A stretch of DNA of 39,819 nt from Patescibacteria group bacterium (GCA_038062165.1 JBBTXQ010000027.1:1-39819), one strand, 5' to 3'; shown: positions 9,049-27,807, counted from the stretch's first letter. Numbers and translations are program-made. The notes: generated by a model from the sequence alone, not told the origin.

Positions 9049-11556
9049 ATGTCATTTCTAAACAAAATTTTTGGCAACGCAGGCGACCGCCGAGTCAAGG
9101 AAGTTGCCCCTTTAGTCGAGCAAGTTAACTCCCACGAGGACGGAATAAAAGCGCTTTCTGATCAAGAACTTAAGGCTAAAACACTTGAGTTTAAGGCTCG
9201 ATTAGAGAAGGGCGAGACTTTGGACGATATTTTGCCTGAAGCTTTTGCTTGTGCGCGTGAGGCGGCTCGGCGCACTCGAGTCGAGCGACACTTTGACGTG
9301 CAATTGATTGGCGGGGTTGTTCTACACCAGAAGGGCATTGCCGAGATGCGTACCGGAGAAGGCAAAACTCTTGTGGCCACTTTGCCCGCGTATCTGAATG
9401 CGCTTACAAGGAAGGGCGTGCACATTGTAACTGTGAATGATTATCTCTCGCGACGTGATGCTACTTGGATGGGGCAAGTTTATAACGCACTCGGCCTTTC
9501 TGTTGGCGTGCTTAATCACGAGGCGTCATATATATATGACGAAAGCGCAAAACTCAAAGCGCAAAACTCAAATCTTGACGAAGAGAGAGACACAGAGGGA
9601 TACTTCAAAGTTGTGCACGAGTTCTTGCGACCGGTGTCACGCCGCGAAGCTTATCAAGCCGATATCACATATGGCACTAATAACGAATTTGGCTTTGATT
9701 ATTTGCGAGATAATCTTTCGTATCATCCCGATGGTTTGGTTCAGCGCGAACATAATTACGCAATTGTTGACGAAGTTGACTCTATTTTAATAGACGAAGC
9801 ACGCACACCTTTGATTATCTCCGGGCCCATAGGCGAGAGCGAATCGCTCTACGGCCAGTTTGCCAAGATCTCTGGCCAATTGATGGAAGGTGAAGACTAT
9901 ACTAAAGACGAAAAGTTAAAGGCAATTCAAATTACAGAAAAAGGGATAGAGAAAGTCGAAAAGATTTTGGGAATAGAAAATATTTATACTGATAAGGGCA
10001 TCAAGTATGTTCACCATCTTGAGACTGCCGTCCGCGCGAAAGCGTTATTTCTGAATGAGAAAGATTACGTAGTGCGCGAGGGTAAGGTGGTAATAGTAGA
10101 TGCCTTCACAGGCCGCCTTCAACCCGGCAGACGTTGGAGTGAGGGCTTGCATCAAGCCATTGAGGCCAAAGAGGGAGTTAAAGTTGAGCAAGAATCGCGC
10201 ACTTATGCCTCTATCACATTCCAGAACTATTTCAGACTCTACAATAAGCTCTCTGGCATGACGGGCACGGCCCTGACAAGCGCAGAAGAGTTTGCTAAAG
10301 TTTATGGCCTGGAAGTCACAAGTATCCCCACCAACAAACCATCCAAGAGAACAGATTATAACGATCTAGTATTTCAAAGTGAGAAGGGCAAATTCCAAGC
10401 AGTAGCTAAGAAAGTCAAAGAACTTAATCAAAAGGGTCAACCAGTCTTGATCGGCACAGTCTCGATCGATAAGAACGAGATGTTAAGTGCGTATTTAACG
10501 CGCGAAGGGGTGCGTCACAATCTCTTGAACGCCAAGAATCACGAGAACGAAGGCGCGATTATAGCTGATGCTGGCAAGAAGGGTTCTGTGACTGTGGCCA
10601 CTAACATGGCTGGCCGCGGCGTAGACATCAAGCTTCGTGGCACACATGCAAATGAGAGCGAGCATGATGAAGTCAAGACTTTAGGAGGTTTGTTTGTTTT
10701 GGGAACAGAGCGTCACGAAGCCAGACGCATAGACAACCAACTAAGGGGTCGCGCGGGCAGACAAGGTGACGCGGGAGAAACTCAATTTTTTGTGTCGCTT
10801 GAAGATGACTTAATGCGCATATTCGGCTCTGAACGCATCAAGAGCATGATGGGTAAGTTTGGCATCAAAGAAGACGAGCCCATAGAAAGTCGGTTAGTCT
10901 CAAAATCGATAGAAGGGGCACAAGAAAAAATAGAGGGCTTTCATTTTGACGCTCGCAAGCACACGCTCGAATATGACGACGTGCTTAATTTTCAACGTAA
11001 GCTTATCTATGGTCGCAGACGCAAACTGCTTGTGGGCACAGATCAAGAAGTAGAGTTGTATTTGTCTGAATTAATGGCCGGTAATCAAGAACTTGAGGAG
11101 CTGATTACTAAAAAAAGGGAAGAATTAAATAGTCCGCCAGCTGGCGGATTCTTACCCAGTGTGCGTCAACTATTGCTCCAGATCATAGACATGCTTTGGC
11201 TTGAGCACTTAGAAGCGATGGATTATTTGCGCTCTTCCGTGCGCCTGCGAGCCTATGGCCAGCGAGATCCACTCATCGAGTACAAGCGCGAAGGTTTGAG
11301 TATGTTCAAAGAACTCGAAGCCAACTTGGTTGCAAACATAACCCACATGCTCCCGAACGTAGGCGGCGTCAGGATTACTAGCGAGCAGAAGAACTTAAAC
11401 GAAGTGCGCGAAGGAGCGAAAGATATAGCCACCCGTTCACTTAGCGACCATGTCGCTAAGTCAAAAGAAGTGGGCCGTAACGACCCTTGCCCGTGCGGAA
11501 GCGGTCTAAAGTATAAACGTTGTGGCATGATAAATGCTCCAGAGCATAATGGGTAG
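9049..11556 (+). CDS. secA: Preprotein translocase ATPase SecA
   Basis: MRTGEGKT, VTVNDYL, DEVDSILIDEARTPLIISG, TNMAGRG, QLRGRAGRQGD and C-terminal SEC-C motif GRNDPCPCGSGLKYKRC. Confidence 0.99.
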   Translation: MSFLNKIFGNAGDRRVKEVAPLVEQVNSHEDGIKALSDQELKAKTLEFKARLEKGETLDDILPEAFACAREAARRTRVERHFDVQLIGGVVLHQKGIAEMRTGEGKTLVATLPAYLNALTRKGVHIVTVNDYLSRRDATWMGQVYNALGLSVGVLNHEASYIYDESAKLKAQNSNLDEERDTEGYFKVVHEFLRPVSRREAYQADITYGTNNEFGFDYLRDNLSYHPDGLVQREHNYAIVDEVDSILIDEARTPLIISGPIGESESLYGQFAKISGQLMEGEDYTKDEKLKAIQITEKGIEKVEKILGIENIYTDKGIKYVHHLETAVRAKALFLNEKDYVVREGKVVIVDAFTGRLQPGRRWSEGLHQAIEAKEGVKVEQESRTYASITFQNYFRLYNKLSGMTGTALTSAEEFAKVYGLEVTSIPTNKPSKRTDYNDLVFQSEKGKFQAVAKKVKELNQKGQPVLIGTVSIDKNEMLSAYLTREGVRHNLLNAKNHENEGAIIADAGKKGSVTVATNMAGRGVDIKLRGTHANESEHDEVKTLGGLFVLGTERHEARRIDNQLRGRAGRQGDAGETQFFVSLEDDLMRIFGSERIKSMMGKFGIKEDEPIESRLVSKSIEGAQEKIEGFHFDARKHTLEYDDVLNFQRKLIYGRRRKLLVGTDQEVELYLSELMAGNQELEELITKKREELNSPPAGGFLPSVRQLLLQIIDMLWLEHLEAMDYLRSSVRLRAYGQRDPLIEYKREGLSMFKELEANLVANITHMLPNVGGVRITSEQKNLNEVREGAKDIATRSLSDHVAKSKEVGRNDPCPCGSGLKYKRCGMINAPEHNG
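9542..9572. repeat. Tandem heptamer-based repeat inside secA
   Basis: (AAAGCGC AAAACTC)x2 AAA, within ESAKLKAQNSN. Confidence 0.6.
11131..11150. repeat. In-frame palindrome in secA
   Basis: TCCGCCAGCTGGCGGA perfect 16-bp palindrome (11133-11148), encodes SPPAGGF. Confidence 0.8.
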
Positions 11557-11588
11557 ATTGAGCTTAAGTTCTGTGATATGATAGACTC

Positions 11589-11813
11589 ATGAATCAGCAC
11601 GAATTTACAGCTGTGTACCAGAAAAGAGGGAATTGGATTTTGGCTTGGATCGAAGAAATCCCGGGCGTAAATACGCAAGGCAGGACTAGGAAGGAAGCAA
11701 AAGAAAATTTAAAAGAGGCCCTACAGTTAGTCCTCGAAACGAACTACGCACTTTCTTCTGGAAAAGAAACCGAAACTAGTAGGGAATCTTTCAGGATAGC
11801 TGTCCCCGCTTAA
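11589..11813 (+). CDS. hicB: HicB-family antitoxin (short, no DNA-binding domain)
   Basis: WIEEIPGVNTQGRTRKEAKENLKEAL partial RNase H fold signature. Confidence 0.9.
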   Translation: MNQHEFTAVYQKRGNWILAWIEEIPGVNTQGRTRKEAKENLKEALQLVLETNYALSSGKETETSRESFRIAVPA

Positions 11814-11817
11814 CTTT

Positions 11818-12012
11818 ATGAAGAGGGTTGACCTCTTGAGATATTTGAATGAGCAAGGGTGTCTAATGATCAGAGAGGGCAAGAAACATTCAGTTCTCAT
11901 CAATCCCAATACTGAACGTACCTCGACTGTACCTAGACACAATGAGGTCGATAGCTTTTTGGCCAAGAAGATCTGCAAAGATCTAGGCATAAAACAGCTA
12001 GAAAAAAAGTAA
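11818..12012 (+). CDS. hicA: HicA-family mRNA interferase toxin
   Basis: GC...REGKKHS and VPRH.EV...LAKKICKDLG; downstream of hicB. Confidence 0.9.
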   Translation: MKRVDLLRYLNEQGCLMIREGKKHSVLINPNTERTSTVPRHNEVDSFLAKKICKDLGIKQLEKK

Positions 12013-12443
12013 TGGACAAGAAAATTGCAGAGAACATTCAGGGGAAGGTTGAAGGTTTGTTGCTAACGTTGGGAGGTGACTTGCGGATTGCGACCAAGGA
12101 TCAATGCAGTGAAGTGGCTCGACTGGTTGGGTGTTGGATATTAAATGAGTGCCCTGGGTGCGAAGTTCAGGTTTGGAAGGGGGAATTATCTGGTGAGCTA
12201 GCTCACGATATCTTGGTTGTAAAAATTGACAACCTACTTTATTTAACAGACCCAACAATATGGCAGATATTTCCGGAAAGCGAAAGCATATTTGTTGGAT
12301 CTGGCCAGAATGCATTAGAAGTAATCAACCTCCTCACGGTTAAATACGGCGGGACATGGGGAATGTCCGAGGTCATGAAGAATTGTGACGAAAGGTACCA
12401 GCGAGAGCTTCTAACCACAATACATGAAAACTCTCAAGCTTAA
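12012..12443 (+). CDS. Hypothetical protein, possible transglutaminase/papain-like fold
   Basis: Candidate Cys-His-Asp triad: DQCSEVAR, LAHDIL, LTDPT; TAATG overlap with hicA. Confidence 0.55.
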   Translation: MDKKIAENIQGKVEGLLLTLGGDLRIATKDQCSEVARLVGCWILNECPGCEVQVWKGELSGELAHDILVVKIDNLLYLTDPTIWQIFPESESIFVGSGQNALEVINLLTVKYGGTWGMSEVMKNCDERYQRELLTTIHENSQA

Positions 12444-12491
12444 TGATGGCAAGAACTAACTGGTATTCGAACTTATGCTAGACTAGCTGAC

Positions 12492-12884
12492 ATGAAGGGG
12501 CTAGAGAAGGATATTTTGAAATACTTGAAGGAGCGGGGGTGGGATAATCTTCGGCCATCGGATCTAGCCAAATCAATCATGATCGAGGGAGCAGAGCTTT
12601 TGGAACTTTTTCAGTGGGATAACCAGGAACTTAAGGGGGTGAGGAAAAACAAAGAAAAGCTCGAGAGCATTAAGAAAGAACTTGCGGATGTAATGATATA
12701 CGCAATCGAAATGTCGGTTCTGCTCGGTCTTGATACTAAGGAGATTATTCGTACCAAACTACACAAATCAGCAGAGAAATATCCTGCAAAGTTGATGAAG
12801 AAAAATGCCAAGAAAGGGGCTGGTTCAGGAGGAGACACAGATTATTGGAAGATAAAGCGAGCTCACCGAGTAAAGGTTAAATGA
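12492..12884 (+). CDS. MazG-like nucleotide pyrophosphohydrolase
   Basis: DLAKSIMIEGAELLELFQW, KKELADV and K....EKYP all-alpha NTP-PPase motifs. Confidence 0.9.
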   Translation: MKGLEKDILKYLKERGWDNLRPSDLAKSIMIEGAELLELFQWDNQELKGVRKNKEKLESIKKELADVMIYAIEMSVLLGLDTKEIIRTKLHKSAEKYPAKLMKKNAKKGAGSGGDTDYWKIKRAHRVKVK

Positions 12885-13060
12885 AAAAGAATAAAGTCAT
12901 GGGTCGAGTAAGTAAAGAGAGGTTACAGCACTTCAATTGTGGCAAGTGCACGCGTTGGTGGAGTATTGGCGATGCGTCTGTGAATAAGAAGGTCTGGCAT
13001 TGCCCTTGGTGCGGTTTGAAGCAAGAGTTTAAAATTATGCCACTTTCAAAATCGAAATGA
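12881..13060 (+). CDS. 59-aa zinc-ribbon microprotein
   Basis: Not in the track; HFNCGKCTRWWSIGDA...WHCPWCG (two CxxC); ATGA overlaps with both neighbours. Confidence 0.8.
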   Translation: MKKNKVMGRVSKERLQHFNCGKCTRWWSIGDASVNKKVWHCPWCGLKQEFKIMPLSKSK

Positions 13061-13953
13061 AAAAACTTATCGTTACTCATAGTGGCACTTTTCATCCGGA
13101 CGATCTCTTGGCATGTACGGTTATAAAAATTATTGAGGAGAGGCAGGGCAATAGTGTGGGAATTATGCGGAGTCGCAAAGAGGAAGATTGGGCTCGGGGT
13201 GATTATGTAATAGATGTTGGTTCTGTTTATGATCCAGAGCACAATAGATTCGATCACCATCAGAAGGGTGGCGCGGGTGGGCGTGAGAATGGCATCAAAT
13301 ATTCGTCGTTGGGTCTTGTGTGGCAGAAATTTGGCATAGAGTTTTGCGAAGGTAACGAAGAGATCGCCAACAAAATAGATAAGAAAATTGTTGAAGCGAC
13401 GGACGCTCTCGATAATGGTCAAGTTGTGGTGGAGAGCAAATATAAAGATGTATATCCATACACACTCTATGACGTGTTTGATCTATATCGCCCGGCATGG
13501 CACGAGAAGCACAAGACATTTGATGAGGGATTCTTAGAAGCGGTTACTTTTGTTGAGAGATTCTTATTGCGAGAAGTTGAGATGGAGAAGGCTCTCATTG
13601 TCGCTCGCGAACGCGTACACGCCCTGCTCGCAGACAGAGAAGATAGGAGGCTTTTAGTAATGGACGAATATATCCCCATACACAATGACATATACGAAAA
13701 AGAAAAGGAGCTTTTATTTGTAGTTTCACCAGACCCTTCAGGCAGATGGGCAGTTCACACAGTTCCGGCCGCATTGCACACATATGACAGTCGCAAGCTT
13801 TTTCCCAGGAATTGGGCTGGCAAAACAGAGGATGAGTTAGCAAAAGTAACTGGCATTGGCGATGCTCTCTTTTGCCACAACGCCAGGTTTATTGCAGTTG
13901 CGGCGAGCAAAGAAGGGGCAATCGCATTGGCCAAACTTGCGCTTGCAGAATAA
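13057..13953 (+). CDS. MYG1 (UPF0160) family metal-dependent hydrolase/exonuclease
   Basis: THSGTFHPDD, DVG.VYDP...RFDHHQ, YSSLGLVW, DALDNG and FCH..RFIA. Confidence 0.95.
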   Translation: MKKLIVTHSGTFHPDDLLACTVIKIIEERQGNSVGIMRSRKEEDWARGDYVIDVGSVYDPEHNRFDHHQKGGAGGRENGIKYSSLGLVWQKFGIEFCEGNEEIANKIDKKIVEATDALDNGQVVVESKYKDVYPYTLYDVFDLYRPAWHEKHKTFDEGFLEAVTFVERFLLREVEMEKALIVARERVHALLADREDRRLLVMDEYIPIHNDIYEKEKELLFVVSPDPSGRWAVHTVPAALHTYDSRKLFPRNWAGKTEDELAKVTGIGDALFCHNARFIAVAASKEGAIALAKLALAE

Positions 13954-13992
13954 GTGTGTTTTGTGGTATAATTCGAACAGGAGGGTCCCAAG

Positions 13993-14442
13993 ATGACGGC
14001 AAGATCTCGTAAGGGAGCGTTGAAGAGCTTTCACTATCACAGAAACCAATTATTCTATTGTAATAATCAGATCCAGGGATACGACAGTATTCCGGAGTGG
14101 ATCATCGCGAAGTGTCTGGCTTGGTGGCATAGCTTCTGTGCTGGCCAGATGGCCATGGATCTCTACAGTCAGCGTGACGAGTTCCCGATCGCAGGCCCCG
14201 AGTGGTGGCCACTCATGCAATTTCTCTCCGACGACTTCTCCGGAGCCTTCTTCAACATCGAAGAGCTCAAGAAGGTGGTGGAGGAGGCCATCGCCCACCC
14301 GGATTGCCCGCCACACGACCAGGCCATGATCCTCGAGATTCTCGAGGCGCATTATTTACAAAAAGAAATGGTGACGGAATCGTTCATGATCAATGATCGC
14401 ATCAAGCTGATCCGGGGGCGTGCACCAGTCATCAGTCTATAG
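13993..14442 (+). CDS. Hypothetical protein (stand-alone orphan cassette)
   Basis: TG-g-TATAAT (13964-13972), AGGAGG Shine-Dalgarno, GC-rich centre and own terminator. Confidence 0.65.
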   Translation: MTARSRKGALKSFHYHRNQLFYCNNQIQGYDSIPEWIIAKCLAWWHSFCAGQMAMDLYSQRDEFPIAGPEWWPLMQFLSDDFSGAFFNIEELKKVVEEAIAHPDCPPHDQAMILEILEAHYLQKEMVTESFMINDRIKLIRGRAPVISL

Positions 14443-14461
14443 AAAATAAGAAGAGAGATTG

Positions 14462-14490
14462 ACAGGATGGGCGAACACCCATCCTGTTTT
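14462..14490 (+). terminator. Rho-independent terminator
   Basis: ACAGGATGGG-CGAACA-CCCATCCTGT followed by a T-run. Confidence 0.75.
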
Positions 14491-14515
14491 CATTTTGTTT
14501 TGATATTATGCAGTA

Positions 14516-15544
14516 ATGATTATCAGAGAAAACGTGTTGCTTGCGCCATACACAACATTGCGTATCGGTGGGCCGGCAAGGTATTTCGCAGAGATTGAAA
14601 ACGAGCAGGAGCTTTCCGAAGGCTTAACCTTTGCGAAGGTTAAGCCTTCGGGTTTACCAATTTTCGTGTTAGGTGGTGGGTCAAACATTTTAGTTTCTGA
14701 CAAAGGCTTCGACGGACTAGTGATCAGACCCATGATCATGGGCAGAGAAGTAATATCCCCACCTATACCCTCCCCTTATAATAAGGGGAGGGCTGGGGAG
14801 GAGATAAGAATCAGGGTGGGAGCAGGGGAGGTGCTTGATGATGTGATCGGGTGGACGGTAGAGAACGGTTGGTGGGGTCTCGAAAACTTATCCTTTATCC
14901 CGGGTCTCACGGGCGCGCTGGCTATACAAAATGTAGGCGCTTATGGGACTGAAGCAAGTGAAGTAATCGAGAGCGTGGAAGTGTTTGACAGGGCGAATAA
15001 TGATTTAAGAATTATGAGTAATGAAGAGTGCGGGTTTGAATATAGAAGGAGTCGTTTTAATACTACTGATAAAAATAAATTCATAATATTGCGTGTGCTT
15101 CTTAAGCTTAAAAAAAATGGCAGGTCTAATCTATCATACGAAGATGTCAAAAGTTATTTTGGGAATCGCCTGCCTGCCGGCAAGACAGGGATTCCCAAGT
15201 TGATTGAACTACGTAATGCAATAATTGAAATTAGAAAAAATAAGGGCCAGGATCCAAATGAGATCTGGAGCGCAGGATCGTTCTTTAAGAACTTCGTTGT
15301 ATGTGACAACGAAGGAGTTGAGTACAAAATTTCGGCCGCCGAGATCCTCGATAAGAGATTGGGTCTTAAGGGCTTGCAAGTAGGCGGGGCTAAACTTAGT
15401 GAGAAGCAGGTGATAAATATGGTGAACACGGGCAACGCCACAGCTCGTGATTGCATAGAACTGTTTGAAAGAGTGCGGGCCATAGTTCTGGATAAAACAG
15501 GGTTGAAGCTAGTGAACGAGCCAGAGTTTGTGGGCTTTGAATAG
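14516..15544 (+). CDS. murB: UDP-N-acetylmuramate dehydrogenase
   Basis: TTLRIGGPA, LGGGSNIL, GLENLSFIPG..G, QNVGAYG, FEYRRSRF, SAGSFFKN and L.NEP. Confidence 0.96.
   Translation: MIIRENVLLAPYTTLRIGGPARYFAEIENEQELSEGLTFAKVKPSGLPIFVLGGGSNILVSDKGFDGLVIRPMIMGREVISPPIPSPYNKGRAGEEIRIRVGAGEVLDDVIGWTVENGWWGLENLSFIPGLTGALAIQNVGAYGTEASEVIESVEVFDRANNDLRIMSNEECGFEYRRSRFNTTDKNKFIILRVLLKLKKNGRSNLSYEDVKSYFGNRLPAGKTGIPKLIELRNAIIEIRKNKGQDPNEIWSAGSFFKNFVVCDNEGVEYKISAAEILDKRLGLKGLQVGGAKLSEKQVINMVNTGNATARDCIELFERVRAIVLDKTGLKLVNEPEFVGFE
14616..14651. repeat. In-frame REP doublet (REPIN-like) in murB
   Basis: CCGAAGGCTTAACCTT-TGCG-AAGGTTAAGCCTTCGG perfect 16-bp stem made of two inverted GAAGG-N5-CCTT units. Confidence 0.85.
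14756..14799. repeat. In-frame palindrome in murB
   Basis: CCCTCCCCTTAT-A-ATAAGGGGAGGG (14768-14792) with outer TCCCCA/TGGGGA; encodes SPPIPSPYNKGRAGE. Confidence 0.85.
15159..15198. repeat. In-frame palindrome in murB
   Basis: TTGGGAATC-G-CCTGCCTGCCGGCAAGACAGG-GATTCCCAA; encodes GNRLPAGKTGIP. Confidence 0.85.
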
Positions 15545-16064: not shown

Positions 16065-17531
16065 ATGAGTGAATATTTTCCAACAATAGGCCTGGAAATA
16101 CACGCGGAATTGAAGACGCGGACCAAGATGTTCTGTGATACCAAGAACGATCCTAACGAGACGAGGCCGAATGTGAATATTTGCCCCATTTGCACGGCCC
16201 AGCCCGGGACTCTGCCTGTTATCAATCGCGAGGCGGTGAAACACGTCTTGAAAGTGGGCGTGGCTTGTGGCAGTGAGCTCGCAGATTATTCCGAATTTGA
16301 TCGCAAGAATTATTTCTACCCTGACATTCCCAAAGGCTACCAAATCTCGCAATACAAGTATCCGTTAGTTAGTGGCGGAAGTTTAAATGAAGTGGCGCTT
16401 ACGCGTATACACTTAGAAGAAGATACAGCTAGCTCGCAACACTTCGATGATTATTCACTTGTCGACTTCAACCGCGCAGGCGTACCCTTAATGGAGCTAG
16501 TCACAGAACCCGTGATGCACGATGCTGTCACGGCCGGGCATTTTGCTCGTGAGTTGCAGCTACTTTTACGCTATTTGGGCGCGAGTGAGGCCAACATGGA
16601 AAAGGGCCAGATGCGCTTAGAGGCAAATGTGAGTGTGATGAAGCTGGGCCTAAACCAATCCTCCGGATTGGTCGGCCGAACTCCGCAGGGCGGAGTTTTA
16701 GGCACGAAAGTAGAAGTGAAGAATATTAACTCTTTTAGGGCACTCGAAAAAGCAATTGAGTATGAGATTAAGCGACAGAGTGAAGAACTGGAAAGTGGGG
16801 GAGTGATCGTGCAAGAGACGCGCGGTTGGGATGACGTTAAAAATAAAACTTTCTCACAAAGAAAGAAAGAATCAAGTCATGATTATAGATATTTCCCCGA
16901 ACCTGATCTACCCAAGCTTAAGTTGTCAGAAGTAGAAGAGTTCAGTGTAGAAAACTTATACAAGACCTTACCAGAATTACCTTCGCAGAAGCGCGAGCGT
17001 TACCAGAGAGATTATGGCATTAAGTTAGAAGACATAGAGAGTTATGTCACTAATCTAGATCTTGCTAATTTCTTCGAAAGTGTTGCGGAAATTTTGAAAG
17101 ACAAAGATAAGGTAAAGCTTGCAAGTAATTACATCACAAGTGATCTAGTTGGTCACTTAGTCGCCTTGCCGCTAAGTGAGAATGAAGAGTACAAACTGCC
17201 GAGTCATGAGCATTTTGCAAAGCTAATAGAGATGATTGCTCGGGGTGACTTATCTAGTAGGGGAGGCAAGGATGTGCTGGCGATCATGCACAAAGAGGGC
17301 GGTGATCCAGAGGTGATCGCAAAGGATAAGGGACTGATTCAGAAACATGACGAGGGTGAGCTCACTAAGATAGTTGATAAAGTGATAAATGAGAATGATA
17401 AAGTTTGGCAAGATTTCAAATCCGGCAAAGAAGCCAGCCTGCAATTCCTAATTGGCCAAGGCATGAAGCTCTCAAAAGGAAGCGCAAACCCTAATTTGTT
17501 GAAAAAAATACTACTTGACAAGCTAGTCTAA
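16065..17531 (+). CDS. gatB: Asp-tRNA(Asn)/Glu-tRNA(Gln) amidotransferase subunit B
   Basis: IGLEIHAEL, FDRKNYFYPDIPKGYQISQ, RIHLEED, DFNRAGVPLMELVTEP, EVKNINSF and DYRYFPEPDLP. Confidence 0.99.
   Translation: MSEYFPTIGLEIHAELKTRTKMFCDTKNDPNETRPNVNICPICTAQPGTLPVINREAVKHVLKVGVACGSELADYSEFDRKNYFYPDIPKGYQISQYKYPLVSGGSLNEVALTRIHLEEDTASSQHFDDYSLVDFNRAGVPLMELVTEPVMHDAVTAGHFARELQLLLRYLGASEANMEKGQMRLEANVSVMKLGLNQSSGLVGRTPQGGVLGTKVEVKNINSFRALEKAIEYEIKRQSEELESGGVIVQETRGWDDVKNKTFSQRKKESSHDYRYFPEPDLPKLKLSEVEEFSVENLYKTLPELPSQKRERYQRDYGIKLEDIESYVTNLDLANFFESVAEILKDKDKVKLASNYITSDLVGHLVALPLSENEEYKLPSHEHFAKLIEMIARGDLSSRGGKDVLAIMHKEGGDPEVIAKDKGLIQKHDEGELTKIVDKVINENDKVWQDFKSGKEASLQFLIGQGMKLSKGSANPNLLKKILLDKLV
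16648..16703. repeat. In-frame branched double-hairpin insertion in gatB
   Basis: ACCAATCC-TCC-GGATTGGT and AACTCCGC-AGG-GCGGAGTT closed by GCCTAA/TTAGGC; encodes GLNQSSGLVGRTPQGGVLG. Confidence 0.85.
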
Positions 17532-17643: not shown

Positions 17644-18795
17644 ATGACCCACTTCAACTCGCTCGCCAACAAGCTTGCCACCGTCGCTCCCGTGCTCCAC
17701 CTCGTGCCCCAGCCCGGACAGGATCTCACCTACGAGGTTCGCCGGTCGGGCTACCGCGAGCACAATATCGCGGACGGCTCCGGGGCTCGCAGGATCGTCT
17801 CGAGCCTCTTCCTCGACCAGAACGTACGGCCCGAGGTCAAGGCCCGGGCCATCGAGCTCTTCGAGACCTCCACGCTCGAGGTGTGCGTTCTGTCGATCGT
17901 GTCGAGCGATGGCAACGTCACGCATCGTGTGCGTGCCAACGGCGCGATCTGGATCGGATTCCTGGCCGTCGGCTTGCGCAAGGCCGAGGCCAAGGCCCGC
18001 AAGATCTGGCTCGAGGGAGACCAGAACAGCTTCAAGTGGCTCTCGACCTCGGGTCGCATCGAGTACCTACCGCAGTGGTATCTCACGGGCGTCGAAGTGC
18101 GCGCTGGGAGTAGCAACGACAAGCAGAGCATTCTCACGCACGTCGAGATCCTGGCCGCGCTTCGACGCTCGGTCGAGGTCTTCGTCCCCAAAGGGGCGAG
18201 CGCCTCGGCAATGATTCCGGACCCGTCGGTCAAGGCGGAATCGGAGAGCACTGCCGACACGGGCATCGTTGCCGAAATCCTGGCAGTCCCCACCGTGATC
18301 GAGACGGGCGAGGAGCTCGAGATGCGCTTCGCCTGGCGCGAGACCAAGAAGGTCGACCCCGCGACGGGCGAGATCAAAACGAGGCGCTACATGCAGGCCT
18401 CGCGCATCGACAACATGCACGGCGTGGTGGTCTACCAGGTCCAGGAGGAGGACAGTCCCTTCCCGGGCTCGGGCGAGACCTGGCAGTTCACGGTTGGACC
18501 GGTCCAGTATTACCGTCCGGCCAAGGGGAAGAAGGTTGGCCTGACCACTTACAGGGCCGATCTCATCCGAATCGTGCCGTACGTTCCGAAGGGCAAGACG
18601 GCCGAGGACTTCGATCCGAACTCGCACGAGATGCTCGTTGGTCTGCCCGGCGGCAATGGCGACGGTCAGCCCAGCAAGGGCAGACTGCCGCGCGAACTGC
18701 GCCGGGCCGCCGCGGAGACCCGCAAGCACGCCCCCAAGCCGCCCAAGTCCGACAAGAAGGACAAGGGCGGCAAGAACAAGGGCAAGAAGAAGTAG
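17644..18795 (+). CDS. GC-rich orphan protein with Lys-rich C-terminal tail
   Basis: 383 aa; AGGAGG at 17631; third codon positions mostly G/C in this frame; no family recognised. Confidence 0.75.
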   Translation: MTHFNSLANKLATVAPVLHLVPQPGQDLTYEVRRSGYREHNIADGSGARRIVSSLFLDQNVRPEVKARAIELFETSTLEVCVLSIVSSDGNVTHRVRANGAIWIGFLAVGLRKAEAKARKIWLEGDQNSFKWLSTSGRIEYLPQWYLTGVEVRAGSSNDKQSILTHVEILAALRRSVEVFVPKGASASAMIPDPSVKAESESTADTGIVAEILAVPTVIETGEELEMRFAWRETKKVDPATGEIKTRRYMQASRIDNMHGVVVYQVQEEDSPFPGSGETWQFTVGPVQYYRPAKGKKVGLTTYRADLIRIVPYVPKGKTAEDFDPNSHEMLVGLPGGNGDGQPSKGRLPRELRRAAAETRKHAPKPPKSDKKDKGGKNKGKKK

Positions 18796-18799: not shown

Positions 18800-18855
18800 A
18801 AAAGCCGGTGTCTCAATCCCCCAATCTTTACATGGGGGTGCGAGGCACCGGTTTT
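18800..18855. terminator. Long hairpin after the GC-rich orphan
   Basis: AAAAGCCGGTGTCTC...GAGGCACCGGTTTT with inner CCCCCA/TGGGGG. Confidence 0.65.
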
Positions 18856-18875: not shown

Positions 18876-19877
18876 ATGAAGAAACTTAAAGTAGCTATTA
18901 ATGGATTCGGACGGATTGGACGGGCTTTTTATAAATTATCTTTTGGACGGGAGGATATGGAGGTTGTGGCGGTCAATGATCTTGGTGACTTCAAAAACTT
19001 GCAGTACTTGCTCAAGTTCGATAGTGCATACGGCATCTGGGCCAAAGATAAATTAGAACAGGTTAAGTTTATTCAGGAAAAAGAACTAGTTAAACTTCCT
19101 TGGCGCGAATATGAAGTAGATGTAGTAATTGAATCAACAGGATTTTATACAAAGTACAAAGATGCCAAGGGTCACTTAGACGCCGGAGCTCGGCGCGTTG
19201 TGATCACTGCGCCTGCACATGGCGAGCACGATCATGGCGAACATGCCATGGGTGCGACGGTGCTTATGGGGATTAATGAGAACAAACTCGAAACTTGCCA
19301 AATTAGTTCTAACGCATCTTGCACAACTAATGCCAGTTCGCCGGTGATCCAAGTTATTCACGAAGCACTGGGCATTGAAAAGGCAATCTTAAGTACCACT
19401 CATGCGTACACTGCATCGCAGAGAATAGTTGATAGCCCGAATGCGAAAGATTTCAGAGAGGGCCGTGCGGCGGCGGTGAATATTATTCCATCAAGTACTG
19501 GTGCCGCCATTGCTGTTACGAAAGCGATTCCGGATTTGGAAAATAAGTTTGATGGCATTGCAATGCGCGTGCCTGTTGTTACCGGCTCGATTGCCGACAT
19601 CACAATGTTAACCAAAAAGAACACTAGCAAAGAAGAAATAAATCAAATTTTGCGTGATGCGGCAAAAACAGATAGATGGCGGGATATCTTGGAAGTTTGT
19701 GACGAGCCTATCGTCTCAAGTGACGTGCGCGGTTCGGCTCACCCGGCGATTGTAGATAGTGAGATGACGCGAGTGGTAGATGGCAACTTGGTGAAAGTGC
19801 TCTCATGGTATGACAACGAAATGGGATACACGAACACATTAATTGCCCATGTGCGTAAAATCGGGCAATTAATGTGA
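18876..19877 (+). CDS. gap: Type I glyceraldehyde-3-phosphate dehydrogenase
   Basis: INGFGRIGR, SNASCTTN, NIIPSSTGAA, RVPV..GS and SWYDNEMGY. Confidence 0.98.
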   Translation: MKKLKVAINGFGRIGRAFYKLSFGREDMEVVAVNDLGDFKNLQYLLKFDSAYGIWAKDKLEQVKFIQEKELVKLPWREYEVDVVIESTGFYTKYKDAKGHLDAGARRVVITAPAHGEHDHGEHAMGATVLMGINENKLETCQISSNASCTTNASSPVIQVIHEALGIEKAILSTTHAYTASQRIVDSPNAKDFREGRAAAVNIIPSSTGAAIAVTKAIPDLENKFDGIAMRVPVVTGSIADITMLTKKNTSKEEINQILRDAAKTDRWRDILEVCDEPIVSSDVRGSAHPAIVDSEMTRVVDGNLVKVLSWYDNEMGYTNTLIAHVRKIGQLM

Positions 19878-19913
19878 AGTACCAAACATAACAAATCGAC
19901 AAACATTTCAAAC

Positions 19914-20354
19914 ATGAAAATCATAATTGGGGCAGATCATGCGGGGTACGGGATGAAAGAGGCTCTCAAACAAGGGCTTACTCTAGCGGGGCATGACGTT
20001 AAAGACGTAGGCGCTTATGCATATGATGAGACTGACGATTATCCTGATTTCGTGAAGTCTCTAGTCGAGAAGGTGCTAGCCAATCCCGATTCGCAGGCAG
20101 TATTCTGCTCGGGTTCCGGTCAAGCTGAAGCAATGTGCGCTAATCGTTATAAGAGCATTAGGGCCGCTGTGTATTATCATCACGATCTTGAAATTGCGCG
20201 ATTATCGCGCGAACACAACAACGCAAATGTGCTGAGTATAGGCGCAAGATTCGTGAGTGCAGAAGAAGCCAAAGAGGCGATTGAATTTTGGCTCACAATA
20301 CCGTTTGATCCCCAGTCCCGCCATGCCAGAAGACTAGCTAAAATTGACCAATGA
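19914..20354 (+). CDS. rpiB: Ribose-5-phosphate isomerase B (RpiB/LacA/LacB family)
   Basis: GADHAG, DDYPD, SREHNNANVL and RHARRL. Confidence 0.95.
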   Translation: MKIIIGADHAGYGMKEALKQGLTLAGHDVKDVGAYAYDETDDYPDFVKSLVEKVLANPDSQAVFCSGSGQAEAMCANRYKSIRAAVYYHHDLEIARLSREHNNANVLSIGARFVSAEEAKEAIEFWLTIPFDPQSRHARRLAKIDQ

Positions 20355-21046
20355 TTATTGTTCCATCAATTGTAGCCAAGGACGAACTCGATCTTGAGTA
20401 CAAACTCAAACAACTTAGCGGTCGGGCCAATCACCGCTCCGAGCGGGACCCCGCCAACGGCGGTGGGTGGGTGCACATAGATGTTGTAGATGGCGAATTT
20501 GCGACCCCGGCTTCGTGGCCTTATACAGAAGATGATCATGAGGAGGCTATTCGGAGTTTAGCCGGACTACAAACAGAGTTAAACTTGGGCATACACTTAA
20601 TGGTCAAGGATCCGCAAGAATATCTTGATCAGTGGATAGACACGCCCGTTAAGAGGATATTGGTCCAGTACGAGTCTCCAGAGCACTTGCAAAACGCGCT
20701 GGCGGTGCTAGATATGAGTAAAATAGAGTCGGGCATTGTGCTCGCCCTTGATACACCCATAGAAGTGATAGCTGAATTGCCGGAAAAAATAAAGTTTGTG
20801 CAACTAATGAGCATAAACAAAATTGGCCATTACGGCGAAACATTCCAGGAAGAAATTTTCAAGAAAATCAAAGAAGTCAAAAGTTTAAACAAAAATATAA
20901 TAGTCTCTGTTGACGGTGGCATCAAAGAAGAGCACTTGAAAGACTTAAAAAAAGCCGGAGCCGACCAAGTAGTCATGGGCAGTGCAATATTTGAGGCTAC
21001 TGATCCCGCCGCCGAACTCTCCCGGCTTCAAAACCTAATAACCTAA
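20351..21046 (+). CDS. rpe: Ribulose-phosphate 3-epimerase
   Basis: PSI, HIDVVDG.F, HLMV..P, SVDGGI and GAD.VV.GSAIF. Confidence 0.93.
   Translation: MIIVPSIVAKDELDLEYKLKQLSGRANHRSERDPANGGGWVHIDVVDGEFATPASWPYTEDDHEEAIRSLAGLQTELNLGIHLMVKDPQEYLDQWIDTPVKRILVQYESPEHLQNALAVLDMSKIESGIVLALDTPIEVIAELPEKIKFVQLMSINKIGHYGETFQEEIFKKIKEVKSLNKNIIVSVDGGIKEEHLKDLKKAGADQVVMGSAIFEATDPAAELSRLQNLIT
20432..20466. repeat. In-frame double hairpin in rpe
   Basis: CCGCTC-C-GAGCGG (20434-20446) and CCGCC-AAC-GGCGG (20451-20463); encodes HRSERDPANGG just before WVHIDVVDG. Confidence 0.7.
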
Positions 21047-21051
21047 AATTC

Positions 21052-21942
21052 GTGGCATATCTTGAGGACAAGAAGATAAGTTTTCTCGAGGAAGCGGCGC
21101 GCAAAATCCGTATTTCAATAATAGAATCACTGATTGCGGCGGGTTCTGGGCACACGGCTGGACCACTTGGCATGGCTGACATTTTCACTACTTTATTTTT
21201 CCACTCACTCAAACATGATGCTAAACGGCCGGATTGGAATGAGCGGGATTTGCTCGTTCTATCGAATGGTCACATCTGCCCAGTTTATTACGCCACGCTT
21301 GCGCATGCTGGCTACTTCCCAGTTGAAGAGTTGAAGACTTTGCGCAAATTTGGCTCGCGCTTGCAGGGTCACCCGCACAGAGATTTCTTGCCAATTTTGG
21401 AAACATCAAGCGGGCCGCTTGGGGCTGGGCTATCGCAGGCCGTGGGCATGGCTCTTGCTTTGCGCATCAACGCAGGTGACGAGAGCGCGCCCGGATTTGA
21501 TTCGCATAGATATGTGTACTGCCTTATGAGTGATGGTGAACTTGACGAGGGTAATAGTTGGGAGGGGGCGATGCTTGCGGGCAAAGAGAAGTTGCACAAC
21601 CTCATAGCCATCATTGATCGCAACAATATTCAGATAGATGGCTACACAGAGAACATAATGCCTCTGGAAAATCTGCGCGACAAATGGGAAGCCTGGAATT
21701 GGCACGTGCAAGAGATCGACGGCCACAATTTCTATGACATCAACATGGCAATTGAAAGAGCCAAGGCTGTGTTTGAAAAACCTAGTGTGATCATAGCCCG
21801 CACGATACCAGGCAAGGGCGTGCACGAGATCGAAAAGAATTATAAATATCACGGCTACCCAGTGGGTGGCAAGGAGGAAGCAGAAGGGTTTTTGAAAGAA
21901 TTGCGTACGCTGGGAGGCAAGATTAAGAGCGAACATGAATAA
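21052..21942 (+). CDS. Transketolase, N-terminal (ThDP-binding) subunit
   Basis: SGH, LSNGH, LQGHP, SGPLGAG, SDGELDEG..WE and IDRNNIQIDG; GTG start. Confidence 0.95.
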   Translation: MAYLEDKKISFLEEAARKIRISIIESLIAAGSGHTAGPLGMADIFTTLFFHSLKHDAKRPDWNERDLLVLSNGHICPVYYATLAHAGYFPVEELKTLRKFGSRLQGHPHRDFLPILETSSGPLGAGLSQAVGMALALRINAGDESAPGFDSHRYVYCLMSDGELDEGNSWEGAMLAGKEKLHNLIAIIDRNNIQIDGYTENIMPLENLRDKWEAWNWHVQEIDGHNFYDINMAIERAKAVFEKPSVIIARTIPGKGVHEIEKNYKYHGYPVGGKEEAEGFLKELRTLGGKIKSEHE

Positions 21943-23026: not shown

Positions 23027-23036
23027 ACTAGATTAA

Positions 23037-24029: not shown

Positions 24030-24084
24030 AATACAGCAGAAGTAATGTTGATTTCATTAAAATAGCGGTCGCTATCATAAGGAA

Positions 24085-24627: not shown

Positions 24628-24662
24628 TTTCCGTAAAGTAGCTATCGCGATCTTGCGGAAAT
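24627..24662. repeat. Imperfect inverted repeat at the PaaX-like gene 3' end
   Basis: ATTTCCGTAAAG...CTTGCGGAAAT; one arm recurs at 24708-24718. Confidence 0.55.
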
Positions 24663-24734
24663 TGAAGGTGGGGATAACTTTTTGTTTATCGTGCTGAGGC
24701 GGGCTACAATTTCCGTAATTAACTCACAAATATC

Positions 24735-25388: not shown

Positions 25389-25402
25389 CGCATATGGTGT
25401 GC

Positions 25403-25429
25403 GTTGCAGGAGGTTTAGCCTCCTGCAAC
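25403..25429. repeat. REP palindrome, RAYT2 type (dispersed copy)
   Basis: GTTGCAGGAGG-TTTAG-CCTCCTGCAAC; 19-bp core identical to 35911-35929. Confidence 0.9.
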
Positions 25430-25503
25430 CTCCCTGTTTAGTCAGGTGATTGTGAACAAAGTGTGCTAGAGTGGGGTTGAAAATTAACAATAACACTTAA
25501 TAT

Positions 25504-25893
25504 ATGGCTCGCTTTGACAGAGGTGGATTCAAGGGAGGGGGTGATCGCAGACCCAAGCAATTATTCGACGCGACTTGCGCCAATTGTGGCAAGGCAACTC
25601 AAGTGCCATTTCGTCCCACGGGTGATCGGCCGGTGTATTGTCGCGAGTGTTTCGCCCAAATGGGCGGGGGAGAAGAGCGCGGGCGAGAGGCAGGAGCACG
25701 CGGTTTCAAGCCCACACAGTCTAGTCCAATTACTAATTCTCCCGATCACAGCGCACTCAAGCGCGAGTTGCAAGAGGTGAATGCCAAACTCGAACGACTC
25801 ATCACGGCCGTGCAATCACTTGCCCAAGTCACTACCTCTGCCGAACCAATTAAGTCTCTCAAGAAGCCAGTTAAAAAAGTATCAAAGAAATAA
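25504..25893 (+). CDS. CxxC-x17-CxxC domain protein
   Basis: ATCANCGKATQVPFRPTGDRPVYCRECF. Confidence 0.9.
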   Translation: MARFDRGGFKGGGDRRPKQLFDATCANCGKATQVPFRPTGDRPVYCRECFAQMGGGEERGREAGARGFKPTQSSPITNSPDHSALKRELQEVNAKLERLITAVQSLAQVTTSAEPIKSLKKPVKKVSKK

Positions 25894-25897
25894 AATT

Positions 25898-26200
25898 ATG
25901 AAGGGGAATATTAAGGAACAGGCACGGATACCGGACGAGGATGTGGTTGAGTGGATTAGAACGCTACAAGAAGGTGGATTTTCACCACAAGAGATTGACA
26001 TAATGATGTCAAATTTGAACGAAGAGTATCTGAGTCAGAAATTTGGCAAATATATAAATGAAGAAGTTTTGAAAGCGATAACTATGGCTGAAAGAGAACA
26101 TGGTCGGGCACTTGACGACGAGGAGAGGAAAATTTTCGAACGAGCCGTTCGTGCAAGATTAAGACAGATCATAATCAACAGTTCTGGTATCGGTTTGTAA
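25898..26200 (+). CDS. Hypothetical protein
   Basis: Start moved to the in-frame ATG at 25898, after the upstream stop; 100 aa. Confidence 0.6.
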   Translation: MKGNIKEQARIPDEDVVEWIRTLQEGGFSPQEIDIMMSNLNEEYLSQKFGKYINEEVLKAITMAEREHGRALDDEERKIFERAVRARLRQIIINSSGIGL

Positions 26201-26208
26201 TTCAAAGC

Positions 26209-27807
26209 ATGACCCAAGCAGAGGCGCTTAATATTCTCAAGACCGGGGCGAATGTTTTCCTGACGGGCGAACCGGGCTCGGGCAAGACTCACACTGTCAA
26301 TGAGTTCGTTCGGTATCTAAAAAGTCAGGGAGTAGAACCAGCCATCACCGCCTCGACGGGCATTGCCGCTACTCATATTGGCGGCATGACTATACATTCT
26401 TGGGCAGGGATTGGAATAAAGAGATACTTATCGAAGTATGAGCTCGACAAGATTGCTACCAATGAGCGTGTGCACAAGCGTGTATCTCGTGCGCGCGTGC
26501 TCATAATAGATGAGATCTCGATGCTCGGCCCAGACACACTCGATATGATTGACGCTGTCTGCCGCACAGTGAGGCGCTCGCACGAACCCTTCGGCGGGCT
26601 CACGGTATTGCTCGTGGGCGACTTCTTCCAATTACCGCCAGTCGTGAAGCGCGAAGAGTTGAACGAGGATGCAGATCTAGAGGAGTCTCGATTGTTTACG
26701 CAAGAAAGGGCCCGCTTCGCCTATCAATCGAGCGTATGGGCTAGAGCAAACTTGCTCACTTGTTATCTGCACGAACAATATCGCCAAGACGATCAAGTTT
26801 TTTTAAATTTACTAGGCGCAATCAGACGCAACGAGTTTGATTTTGATGGTGAGCATCTCGAGCATGTCGAAAAGCGCAAAGTGTCAAACAGCGAGAATCT
26901 CGAACACATACCACAGCTTTATGCTCACAATATTGATGTTGACAGAGTGAACACAGGCAAGCTCGCCCAGATCAAGAGTGATGAGAGAATGTTTGAAATG
27001 TATGCTGAAGGTCCGGAGCACATGACAGAAGCGCTCGCTCGCGGTTGTTTGTCACCCGAGAAGTTGATTCTCAAAGTGGGTGCGGCTGTGATGTGCACCA
27101 AGAATAATCAGAAAGAGAGATTTGTGAACGGCACTCTTGGTACTGTCAGGGCATTTGATAAGACAAGCGGCTACCCGATAATCAAAACGAGATCAGGCAG
27201 AAATATTTTGATAGAACCCATGGAGTGGACGGTGGAAGAGAACGGCAAAGTCAAAGCCAGAATCAGGCAGGTGCCCTTGCGTCTGTCGTGGGCCATCACT
27301 GTACACAAGAGTCAGGGCATGAGCATGGATGCCGCTCTTATGGACCTATCGAATGTTTTTGAACACGGACAAGGCTATGTGGCACTCTCAAGAGTGCGCA
27401 GGCTCGATGGTTTGCACTTGCTTGGCTGGAACGAGCGCACCTTCCAAGTTCATCCCCATGTTCTCGAGCGCGACGTTGCCTTCCGCGCTAATTCCGAAGA
27501 AACCCAAGCAACCTTCGCTAAACTAGACAGGAGCGAACTTGAGAAAATGCACTCAAACTTTGTTCGAGCCTCCGGTGGTAAGCTGAGCAACTTGGCGGTG
27601 AAACCGCCAAGTGAGAAAAAAAGTTATGATGTGGCGAGTCTGCGCACGAAGTATCCGAAAGCGTATCAAGCCTGGGAAAGCGAAGAAGACGGCAAGCTCA
27701 TCCAAATGCATAACAGTGGCATCAAGATAAGCGAAATAGCCAAAGAACTAGGAAGAAAAACCGGCAGTATTACCTCGCGCCTGCGCAAGCACGGCTTAAT
27801 GAAATGA
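26209..27807 (+). CDS. Pif1-family SF1B DNA helicase with C-terminal HTH-like domain
   Basis: GEPGSGKT, TASTGIAA, IIDEISM, GDFFQLPPV, WAITVHKSQG and GQGYVALSR; tail AYQAW..EED...IAKELGRKTGSI.SRL. Confidence 0.93.
   Translation: MTQAEALNILKTGANVFLTGEPGSGKTHTVNEFVRYLKSQGVEPAITASTGIAATHIGGMTIHSWAGIGIKRYLSKYELDKIATNERVHKRVSRARVLIIDEISMLGPDTLDMIDAVCRTVRRSHEPFGGLTVLLVGDFFQLPPVVKREELNEDADLEESRLFTQERARFAYQSSVWARANLLTCYLHEQYRQDDQVFLNLLGAIRRNEFDFDGEHLEHVEKRKVSNSENLEHIPQLYAHNIDVDRVNTGKLAQIKSDERMFEMYAEGPEHMTEALARGCLSPEKLILKVGAAVMCTKNNQKERFVNGTLGTVRAFDKTSGYPIIKTRSGRNILIEPMEWTVEENGKVKARIRQVPLRLSWAITVHKSQGMSMDAALMDLSNVFEHGQGYVALSRVRRLDGLHLLGWNERTFQVHPHVLERDVAFRANSEETQATFAKLDRSELEKMHSNFVRASGGKLSNLAVKPPSEKKSYDVASLRTKYPKAYQAWESEEDGKLIQMHNSGIKISEIAKELGRKTGSITSRLRKHGLMK
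27590..27612. repeat. In-frame REP-like hairpin in the Pif1 linker
   Basis: ACTTGGCGGT-GAA-ACCGCCAAGT perfect 10-bp stem, within NLAVKPPS. Confidence 0.8.

Follow-up and report, generated by a model that had tools for sequence, protein, structure and literature searches.

Short palindromic elements within conserved genes of a Patescibacteria genome and their association with RAYT-like transposase genes

The DNA examined here, a stretch of 39,819 nucleotides (hereafter, the window), is contig C27 of a 663,133-base genome (denoted G000) of a Patescibacteria group bacterium, in which short hairpin-forming palindromes lie in frame within several housekeeping genes, including secA, murB, gatB and pif1. 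We consider it likely that these hairpins belong to repetitive extragenic palindrome (REP)/REP-associated tyrosine transposase (RAYT) systems, the REPs of which have colonised coding sequence, with selection keeping only the copies that are in frame and tolerated. The eight sites in the window that were singled out by a first-pass annotation, which counted at least five sequence types, represent at least seven hairpin types, most of them multi-copy. The assignment of G000, a fragmented metagenome-assembled bin (53 contigs, ~90% complete, 45% G+C), to Patescibacteria, or the candidate phyla radiation (CPR), follows the labels of its relatives. The closest relative, G002, belongs to the same genus (712,009 bases, 23 contigs) and was compared over the whole genome; the 394 genes with reciprocal best hits between the two genomes, at a median protein identity of 70.5%, are referred to below as conserved genes, and comparisons across the genus involve four species (G000, G001, G002 and G003).

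A search of G000 for PF01797 (Y1_Tnp) yields 10 matches that comprise eight RAYT-like open reading frames (ORFs) of 210–227 aa, one of which (on contig C11) is cut by the contig end, and two IS200-like genes. The latter matches, of the IS200/IS605 type (137.7 and 93 bits), are both located on contig C25 (1553 bases) and are distinct from the eight RAYT-like genes. All eight RAYT-like ORFs score at or above the 23-bit cut-off, one of them (4369-5052) only together with its in-frame neighbours. The seven aligned paralogues are 30–63% identical, with invariant N-H-x-H and Y...N motifs, i.e., both the HUH motif and the catalytic tyrosine expected of a RAYT are present as sequence motifs. Copies of a gene-specific hairpin type lie to either side of each of the seven complete genes (one of these 14 copies is degenerate), and the truncated gene has its cognate hairpin on the one side that is available. 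The flanking hairpins are typically found 15–45 nt before the start and 0–20 nt after the stop of the gene. The eight genes and their hairpins are as follows:

4369-5052 of the window (C27), minus strand: RAYT-like Y1 (HUH) transposase gene, 227 aa (PF01797 22.9 bits alone, 23.6 with in-frame neighbours; cut-off 23); hairpin G
35932-36600 of the window (C27), minus strand: second RAYT-like Y1 transposase gene, 222 aa; hairpin K
Contig C19: hairpin A1, the stem of which is found in pif1
Contig C32: hairpin A2
Contig C41: hairpin B
Contig C35: hairpin E, the type found at murB 14616
Contig C11 (gene cut by contig end): hairpin H
Contig C1: hairpin J

Copies of families A, B, E, G, H, J and K are also present away from their respective RAYT-like genes. 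The first-pass annotation proposed that at least one hairpin type depends on RAYT activity, and this proposal gains substance from the fact that hairpins of both the pif1 type and the murB 14616 type flank RAYT-like genes; the association of genes with hairpins suggests that the encoded proteins are active transposases. The C19 gene itself contains its own cognate A1 hairpin in frame (C19:12500-12530, peptide QLGGETAKLV), at a position where the paralogues have a shorter similar stretch.

The association between gene and hairpin holds not only in G000 and G002 but across the CPR. G002 encodes seven RAYT-like paralogues, six of which are adjoined by a cognate hairpin on one or both sides, and the hairpin interiors at two of these genes (AGGC and GGGGTT) occur in G000 only as coding copies. 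The RAYT-like protein has at least 2195 homologues, the named ones being labelled 'transposase' or 'hypothetical protein' in Patescibacteria, Paceibacterota or Parcubacteria. Among contigs sampled at one genome per species, 502 stretches encode a RAYT-like relative; the best 80 of these 502 carry mostly CPR/Patescibacteria-type labels, with some labelled 'bacterium', Gammaproteobacteria or Bdellovibrionales, and in 41 of these best 80 loci the same hairpin is found on both sides of the gene, in several cases with an ACTTRG foot. Within the order, 27 of 41 genomes contain a PF01797 match, with counts of 10, 3, 7 and 13 in the genus.

The hairpins fall into families as follows:

Family A: foot ACTTRG...CYAAGT with a variable self-complementary interior; pif1 27590, secA 11439 and the methyltransferase tail
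Family B: built on GGTTACC/GGTAACC
Family C: CCCTCYCTTAT...ATAAGRGAGGG; includes murB 14768
Family D: CCTGCCTGCC GGCAGGCAGG; five identical 20-mers, with a degenerate copy at murB 15159
Family E: CGAAGG...CCTTCG; murB 14616
Family F: the 16-nt secA palindrome; six copies, three exact and three with one mismatch
Families G, H, J and K: mainly beside RAYT-like genes
Family L: composite; two variable hairpins joined by a conserved linker, between a start and an end that are also conserved

The A motif has 38 hits in G000 and 70 in G000 and G002 together; at least three interior pairs adjoin the foot in 48 of the 70 hits, compared with 3% of shuffled interiors, and each of the two genomes has 11 different interiors. 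Type C is undercounted by the regular-expression census of families, the pattern being too strict, and rests on other copy searches. Family L includes six copies besides gatB, five of them in large ORFs; the linker search gave 7 hits in G000, of which C52:32539 was dropped because it has no two-hairpin fold, and the gatB insert, with a variant linker that is missed by this pattern, resembles the family and is placed in it by architecture only. In G002, a composite palindromic unit of 48–54 nt that encodes SRF(D/G)L(S/P)NRGSSISQAK is present in two unrelated genes (C14:33443-34528 and C9:26465-27391), the G000 orthologues of which are empty, and a piece of this unit is found in another G000 gene (C44:23799).

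The coding hairpins are far in excess of expectation. Counting perfect stems that span 9 bp or more and enclose a loop of up to 9 nt, and using as the control five genomes with codons shuffled within genes, we found 190 hairpins in G000, 109 of which are inside crudely called ORFs, compared with 11–22 in the shuffles; with the stem threshold raised to 11 bp, the respective numbers are 50 and 0–2. The genome-wide count of coding and intergenic copies, called for in the first-pass annotation, thus shows hairpins in genes to be much more frequent than in codon-shuffled controls, and their placement differs from the predominantly extragenic one of REPs. At least one hairpin is present in 50 of the 394 conserved genes, and 13 of these carry more than one. 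The hairpins are spread along the genes, and the final 15 codons contain 5 of 65 and the initial 15 contain 4; none was found at the single split-gene junction. Stems of at least 8 bp number 135 in conserved genes and 76 in the remaining ORFs, compared with 117 in intergenic DNA, where the density per kb is ~6 times that in coding DNA. In conserved genes, copies of type D occupy one reading phase in 9 of 9 and 9 of 10 cases, and those of type A are distributed among the three phases as 14, 9 and 1, the least-used phase being the one that would put a stop codon in the ACTTAG variant. This phase bias reads as the signature of selection on peptides that are presumably translated.

For a comparison of genomes with and without RAYT-like genes, coding hairpins were counted strictly, only in ORFs of at least 200 aa and only when more than 20 codons away from both ends of the ORF, using whole G000 and G002 and samples of the other genomes:

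G000: 10 PF01797 matches; 663 kb; 66 coding hairpins of at least 9 bp (shuffles 9–18), 31 of at least 11 bp (shuffles 0–1); 10-mer in common with another hairpin elsewhere in the genome in 40/66
G002: 7 PF01797 matches; 712 kb; 70 coding hairpins of at least 9 bp (shuffles 17–21), 21 of at least 11 bp; shared 10-mer in 36/70
G004: 0 PF01797 matches; 400 kb; 26 coding hairpins of at least 9 bp (shuffles 9–10), 9 of at least 11 bp; shared 10-mer in 2/26
G035: 0 PF01797 matches; 400 kb; 15 coding hairpins of at least 9 bp (shuffles 9–11), 0 of at least 11 bp; shared 10-mer in 2/15
G038 (another family, 35% G+C): 6 PF01797 matches; 227 kb; 23 coding hairpins of at least 9 bp (shuffles 6–12), 4 of at least 11 bp

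Neither Pfam nor a CPR-specific profile detects a RAYT-like gene in G004 or G035. Therefore, multi-copy coding hairpins go with RAYT-like genes, and a background of unique coding palindromes is present even where RAYTs are missing. The presence of a RAYT as a sufficient cause of coding hairpins is not supported, given the few coding copies in G038 despite its six matches and the excess in the RAYT-free G004.

In the window, the genes named by Pfam include those for a methyltransferase (2777-3478), SecA (9049-11556), MurB (14516-15544), GatB (16065-17531), ribulose-phosphate 3-epimerase (Ribul_P_3_epim, rpe; 20351-21046) and a PIF1-type helicase (26209-27807). The elements in and between these genes are:

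3445-3473: A-type hairpin in the 3'-terminal part of the methyltransferase gene; stem of 13 bp, including one G-T; foot ACTTGG...CTAAGT; z -4.5
4003-4019 and 4051-4069: two inverted G-type hairpins (GGAGGGTWACCCTCC), intergenic, a doublet like a REPIN (REP doublet forming a hairpin)
4331-4349: G-type hairpin, 20 nt downstream of the RAYT-like gene 4369-5052
5085-5100: degenerate G-type copy upstream of the same gene
11133-11148: F-type perfect palindrome of 16 nt in secA; peptide SPPAGG
11439-11461: A-type hairpin in secA; 10-bp stem; peptide SLSDHVAKS; missed by the first-pass annotation
14616-14651: E-type hairpin in murB; 16-bp stem; peptide SEGLTFAKVKPS
14754-14806 (core 14768-14792): C-type hairpin in murB; 12-bp stem inside a longer imperfect one; peptide PPIPSPYNKGRAG
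15159-15198: degenerate, imperfect D-type hairpin in murB; peptide LPAGKTG; 7-aa insert
16648-16697: two-hairpin composite insert in gatB; 8-bp stems at 16654-16672 and 16679-16697, enclosed by an outer pairing
20432-20467: GC-rich 12-aa insert in rpe, single copy, not a significant hairpin
25403-25429: K-type hairpin, CAGGAGG n5 CCTCCTG, intergenic
27590-27612: A1-type hairpin in pif1; 10-bp stem; peptide NLAVKPPS
35911-35929: K-type hairpin just downstream of the second RAYT-like gene (35932-36600)
36614-36632: K-type hairpin just upstream of that gene; loop inverted relative to 35911-35929

In-frame elements are present at all eight sites singled out previously, going by the sequence and the Pfam names of the genes; none of the hairpin-bearing window ORFs is broken, and the peptides that had been quoted for these sites are indeed translations of the respective stretches. 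The description of all eight as GC-rich hairpins stands for seven, which fold far better than shuffled sequences, and fails for rpe. Specifically, when nine window stretches were folded as single-stranded DNA (ssDNA) and compared with 200 dinucleotide shuffles, eight were more stable than expected (z from -2.8 to -8.0, with 0–1 of 200 shuffles as good), and the palindromic character of the rpe stretch (20420-20480) did not go beyond chance (z = -0.44; 61 of 200 shuffles equal). The rpe insert contains no perfect stem of at least 7 bp and has no second copy in the genome. Several additional intergenic hairpins with perfect or near-perfect stems of 12–19 bp (3938-3964, 5485-5518, 8523-8553, 8662-8689 and 8994-9035) might include terminators. 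At murB 15280-15320, ~20–40 residues, depending on the relative, are missing compared with almost all of the 29 aligned relatives (G006 is also short), and this gap adjoins a 9-bp hairpin at 15292-15314.

Comparison with orthologues, which was suggested along with the original description in order to find empty sites, provides such sites for most of the window inserts. The G002 alleles are shorter and contain no hairpin or insert at secA (excess of 4 aa in G000), murB 14756 (10 aa), murB 15159 (7 aa), gatB (10 aa) and rpe (12 aa); at these five sites, the peptides do interrupt the family sequence as claimed, but murB 14616, with a net gain of 2 residues, is not a simple insertion. The murB 14756 insert is found only in G000 and G001 among the 29 covering sequences of a 30-sequence MurB alignment, being absent from G002 and 26 others, and the Pseudomonas MurB of known structure does not have this stretch either; contig C41 has, within an ORF of 695 aa, a 54-nt copy of this element (14754-14806) that is 94% identical. 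In the same alignment, the murB 15159 insert is unique to G000, with a different insert at that site in G003. At secA 11133, the gain of 4 aa is seen relative to both G001 and G002, and G003 has a tandem pair at that site; in gatB, the insert amounts to 17 aa relative to G001. The hairpin of the methyltransferase gene encodes a C-terminal tail of 10 residues, and the G002 orthologue ends 10 residues earlier.

Across the conserved genes, 59 G000 hairpins could be aligned, of which 21 fall in segments that exceed their G002 counterparts by 3 aa or more, 5 are in shorter segments and 14 are matched at the orthologous G002 site by a hairpin of 8 bp or more (control windows, ~1%). The reciprocal count, starting from 64 G002 hairpins, gives 21 in longer segments, 15 with an orthologous hairpin, 25 in segments of unchanged length and 3 in shorter ones. 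There are 15 clean empty-site cases, and in those that were read, including the D type, the inserted block is essentially the palindrome, without target duplication; for example, a D unit of G002 is an exact 18-nt palindrome of six codons inserted without such duplication. Accordingly, the combination of terminal inverted repeats with target-site duplication that typifies MITEs (miniature transposable elements with inverted repeats) is not seen in the clean cases read. No common target sequence could be defined from the 15 clean cases. Among indels of 3–30 aa, stems of at least 7 bp are present in 34 of 231 and 17 of 243, compared with 29 of 1155 and 23 of 1215 in controls; most indels of this size are not hairpins. 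Judging from the alignments, the placement of the inserts reads as one in variable protein loops.

The sites also appear to undergo turnover. Between orthologous hairpins, substitutions occur in pairs that leave the stem perfect, e.g., at C32:4933 (GGTTACC/GGTAACC vs GGCTACC/GGTAGCC, where the paired change costs a Thr to Ala replacement), at C43:12711 and in pif1, where G002 has a hairpin at the same site with compensatory changes in the foot. The 10-bp stem of this pif1 hairpin is the same as that upstream of the C19 RAYT-like gene, with the loop reverse-complemented. The same loop can be occupied by different families in G000 and G002 (B and A, respectively, at C39:26461; A and E-like at C35:9695), and at C20:2844, within a conserved ungapped stretch, each of the two species has a different perfect stem. 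Among the four species, the rpe and murB 14756 inserts are common to G000 and G001 only, and the secA insert is common to G000 and G003 only. These splits fit no single tree, which implies that at least one site was hit twice or was emptied precisely. The Y1 transposases of the IS200/IS605 family are known to excise seamlessly and to insert site-specifically. The gatB loop contains unrelated palindromes in G000 and G003; the G003 insert in this loop (L167) is ~78 nt long and forms a long imperfect outer stem, with a sequence unrelated to that of the window insert. No within-population empty-site alleles were detected at hairpin positions in contigs of four runs, although contigs drop rare variants, which makes this result uninformative. 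Contig joints at 15191->11131 and 16737->27589 have sides of only 21–31 nt with 90% likeness; these probably come from other repeat copies or organisms and were not used.

Taken together with the family structure and multi-copy status of the hairpins, the empty sites in relatives, the preservation of frame and the reuse of sites across species, all of which are directly observed, the association with RAYT-like genes points to the following scenario. The hairpins would be REP-like elements, palindromes of 16–54 nt, that belong to several REP/RAYT systems. By analogy with IS200/IS605 and with the Escherichia coli RAYT, the RAYT-like enzymes might recognise the folded hairpin on ssDNA and cut and rejoin at its foot, so that hairpins would be copied or moved without target duplication and excision would be seamless. 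Because ~91% of the assembly consists of ORFs by the crude call, most landing sites would be coding. Selection would then remove those copies that break the frame, bring in a stop codon or land in the structured core, and the survivors would be in-frame copies that are tolerated as short loops rich in Pro, Gly, Ala and Ser in variable regions, or as C-terminal tails. We infer that the RAYT-like proteins catalyse the spread of the hairpins, an activity assigned by analogy, and that the inserts are translated; their perfect palindromy is probably kept by re-insertion or by intrastrand templating.

Several results weigh against this scenario, at least in its simplest form. Scores against the NCBIfam model REP_Tyr_transpos (NF047646) are only 16.9–28.4 bits, compared with a cut-off of 80, for the four of the eight proteins that were tested, and a search of solved structures by sequence, with a single protein or a profile, gave no related match to the RAYT-like protein. 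A mitochondrial ribosomal protein that came up as a structural match (E = 0.22) was disregarded. The GTAG and CGTC tags of the REP superfamilies are present in 8 and 14 of 189 hairpins, respectively, compared with 7.0% and 6.2% at random positions, i.e., the hairpins are not tagged. For types C, D, F and L and for the rpe insert, there is no neighbouring RAYT-like gene in the ~90%-complete assembly. The single reading phase of the D-type copies needs strong selection on the peptide or an unknown form of targeting. In the RAYT-free G004, there are 26 coding hairpins vs 9–10 in shuffles, nearly all with unique sequences; conversely, in G038, REP families are clear but mostly intergenic, with ~2–3 coding copies in 227 kb. 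Furthermore, 19 of the 59 alignable G000 hairpins are in segments of the same length as in G002; together with the gain of only 2 aa at murB 14616, where the central Phe-Ala-Lys (F-A-K) is ancestral in MurB, this suggests that at least some copies replaced existing sequence or arose in place.

An origin in place could indeed be envisaged for the hairpins in general: palindromes would arise and stay perfect through intrastrand template switching or hairpin-templated repair at replication, and recur via sequence bias or gene conversion, with no transposase involved. The apparent half-unit of G002 at the very place of the murB 14616 hairpin would fit such a process, as would the two different perfect stems at C20:2844, the compensatory changes in orthologous hairpins (C32:4933, the pif1 foot and C43:12711) and the excess of unique hairpins in G004. 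However, near-identical units in unrelated genes, such as the five D 20-mers, the 54-nt C copy and the 36-nt E unit of murB 14616, which is also present with 1 mismatch in an unrelated G002 gene, are left unexplained, and so are the clean insertions of exactly the palindrome and the fact that each family flanks its own transposase gene. In addition, the RAYT-free G035 shows no excess of stems of at least 11 bp (0 vs 0–1). We regard this origin as unlikely. Somewhat different considerations apply to the possibility that the hairpins are kept for a cellular function as DNA or mRNA structures, for instance in pausing, in mRNA stability or as binding sites of a domesticated RAYT, with the peptide being a by-product. 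Sites that are often empty in close relatives imply that no given copy is needed, the copies have no common position in genes, and no Rfam family is detected in the window at gathering scores; all this makes the functional explanation quite improbable in our view, even though perfect stems persist at orthologous sites (14/59 and 15/64) at the above level of protein divergence and compensatory change is sometimes accompanied by an amino-acid cost, as with Thr to Ala at C32:4933. It also draws on the single-copy status of the RAYT paralogues and their spread in the order, a pattern that has been described for domesticated RAYTs (Bertels et al., 2017, PMC5581495).

The notion that the hairpins are artefacts of assembly or amplification of the metagenome-assembled genome can be rejected with near certainty. 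The bin is fragmented, and contigs from other runs often stop inside hairpins (14800, 11146 and 16691); nevertheless, the window DNA was found in groundwater metagenome runs of two studies, and contigs from a sample other than the likely source are identical to 10930-14800 and 19410-21777 (0 differences, 0 gaps), which excludes an assembly artefact for secA, murB 14616 and rpe. Moreover, the three other species of the genus carry related, diverged inserts at the same or other sites, and all hairpin-bearing ORFs are open. Contigs from independent runs start or stop inside or at the edge of hairpin units at 11146, 14800, 16691 and 20452, so the repeats seem to break short-read assembly graphs; in G000, just 5 of the 190 hairpins are within 80 nt of a contig end. 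In contigs of three other runs, one base each is missing at 18818 and 18834, in the spacer between the ORFs 17644-18795 and 18876-19877.

Returning to the colonisation of coding sequence by REP/RAYT systems, one can conceive of a more radical version, which we put forward as a long shot, whereby the radiated RAYT paralogues and hairpins of this CPR genus form a standing system of in-frame cassettes. Particular loops of essential proteins would serve as landing pads, with units excised, re-inserted, swapped between families and kept palindromic, so that the hairpins would be a built-in generator of protein-surface variation rather than tolerated junk. If this were the case, RAYT activity would keep altering short loops at protein surfaces throughout the proteome of an ultra-small symbiont.

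Genomes of CPR/Patescibacteria are regarded as streamlined. The presence of 8–13 RAYT-like paralogues, each with a hairpin family of its own, and of hairpins in about one-eighth of the conserved genes suggests that selfish or domesticated DNA thrives in the CPR and directly shapes protein sequences. The hairpins would thus provide, as a natural data set, hundreds of insertions tolerated in the loops of essential proteins and, beside Rickettsia, a second independent case of in-frame palindromic elements in reduced genomes, one with candidate enzymes and a mechanism that is testable in vitro. As a practical warning, such repeats disrupt assemblies, make proteins look more divergent than they are and introduce lineage-specific indels into the marker genes on which CPR phylogeny relies.

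RAYTs are usually present in one or a few copies per much larger genome. As in the proteobacterial REP/RAYT (REPIN-RAYT) systems, a short GC-rich palindrome that differs between paralogues stands on either side of a single-copy Y1 HUH gene and recurs at many places in the genome that lack the gene, with some copies arranged as inverted doublets (window 4003-4069). The organisation described here is unlike these systems in having eight paralogues in a genome of ~0.7 Mb (3–13 PF01797 matches in the genus, a few IS200-like ones included), more than half of the hairpins within ORFs, no GTAG/CGTC tag and scores far below the NCBIfam RAYT cut-off. That RAYT genes are flanked by REPs, with REP families specific to each RAYT, is established by earlier reports (Nunvar, 2010, PMC2817692; Bertels and Rainey, 2011, PMC3116915; Ton-Hoang, 2012, PMC3333891). 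We found no papers that tie RAYT, REPIN or REP to CPR/Patescibacteria, in a search outside of which most subscription journals lie.

With IS200/IS605 elements, the RAYT-like systems have in common a Y1 HUH transposase, subterminal hairpins and the absence of target duplication, and seamless excision of the IS200/IS605 kind would explain the incompatible patterns of presence and absence. Autonomous elements of that family have transposase genes in near-identical copies, whereas the RAYT-like genes, at 30–63% identity, are not repeated as units and only the hairpins are multi-copy; the two true IS200-like copies of C25 stand apart from them.

The first-pass annotation contrasted the elements of Rickettsia with classical REPs, taken to be extragenic. 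This contrast has to be amended because REPs inside genes are documented in Opitutus terrae, Rickettsia conorii, Thauera and others (Di Nocera et al., 2013, PMC3733652). In the sections of that work that deal with them, units or dimers lie inside ORFs for known proteins and encode short stretches, a RAYT is flanked by REPs, as in G000, and the intragenic REPs are interpreted as neutral loop inserts. The REPs described there are, however, mostly intergenic, with an intragenic minority concentrated in replication and repair genes, whereas here 50 of 394 conserved genes of all kinds are affected, and in a CPR lineage. Rickettsia palindromic elements (RPEs), as characterised in the corresponding portion of PMC10969869, are ~150 bp long, in frame, and encode a conserved peptide domain. 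Like RPEs, the hairpins are palindromic repeats of several families located in frame in unrelated housekeeping genes of a reduced genome; compared by description with the RPE definition (in-frame units of ~100–150 bp with a conserved peptide), they agree in frame and differ in length (16–54 nt). Furthermore, each of eight families has an adjoining candidate enzyme, and none is named for RPEs in that portion of the source. The phenomenon is thus of a known kind, that of intragenic REPs and RPEs, and what is new is its density, with many RAYT paralogues in a tiny genome: a divergent, radiated RAYT-like clade in ultra-small CPR genomes, accompanied by untagged hairpins that are found in coding sequence to an unusual degree.

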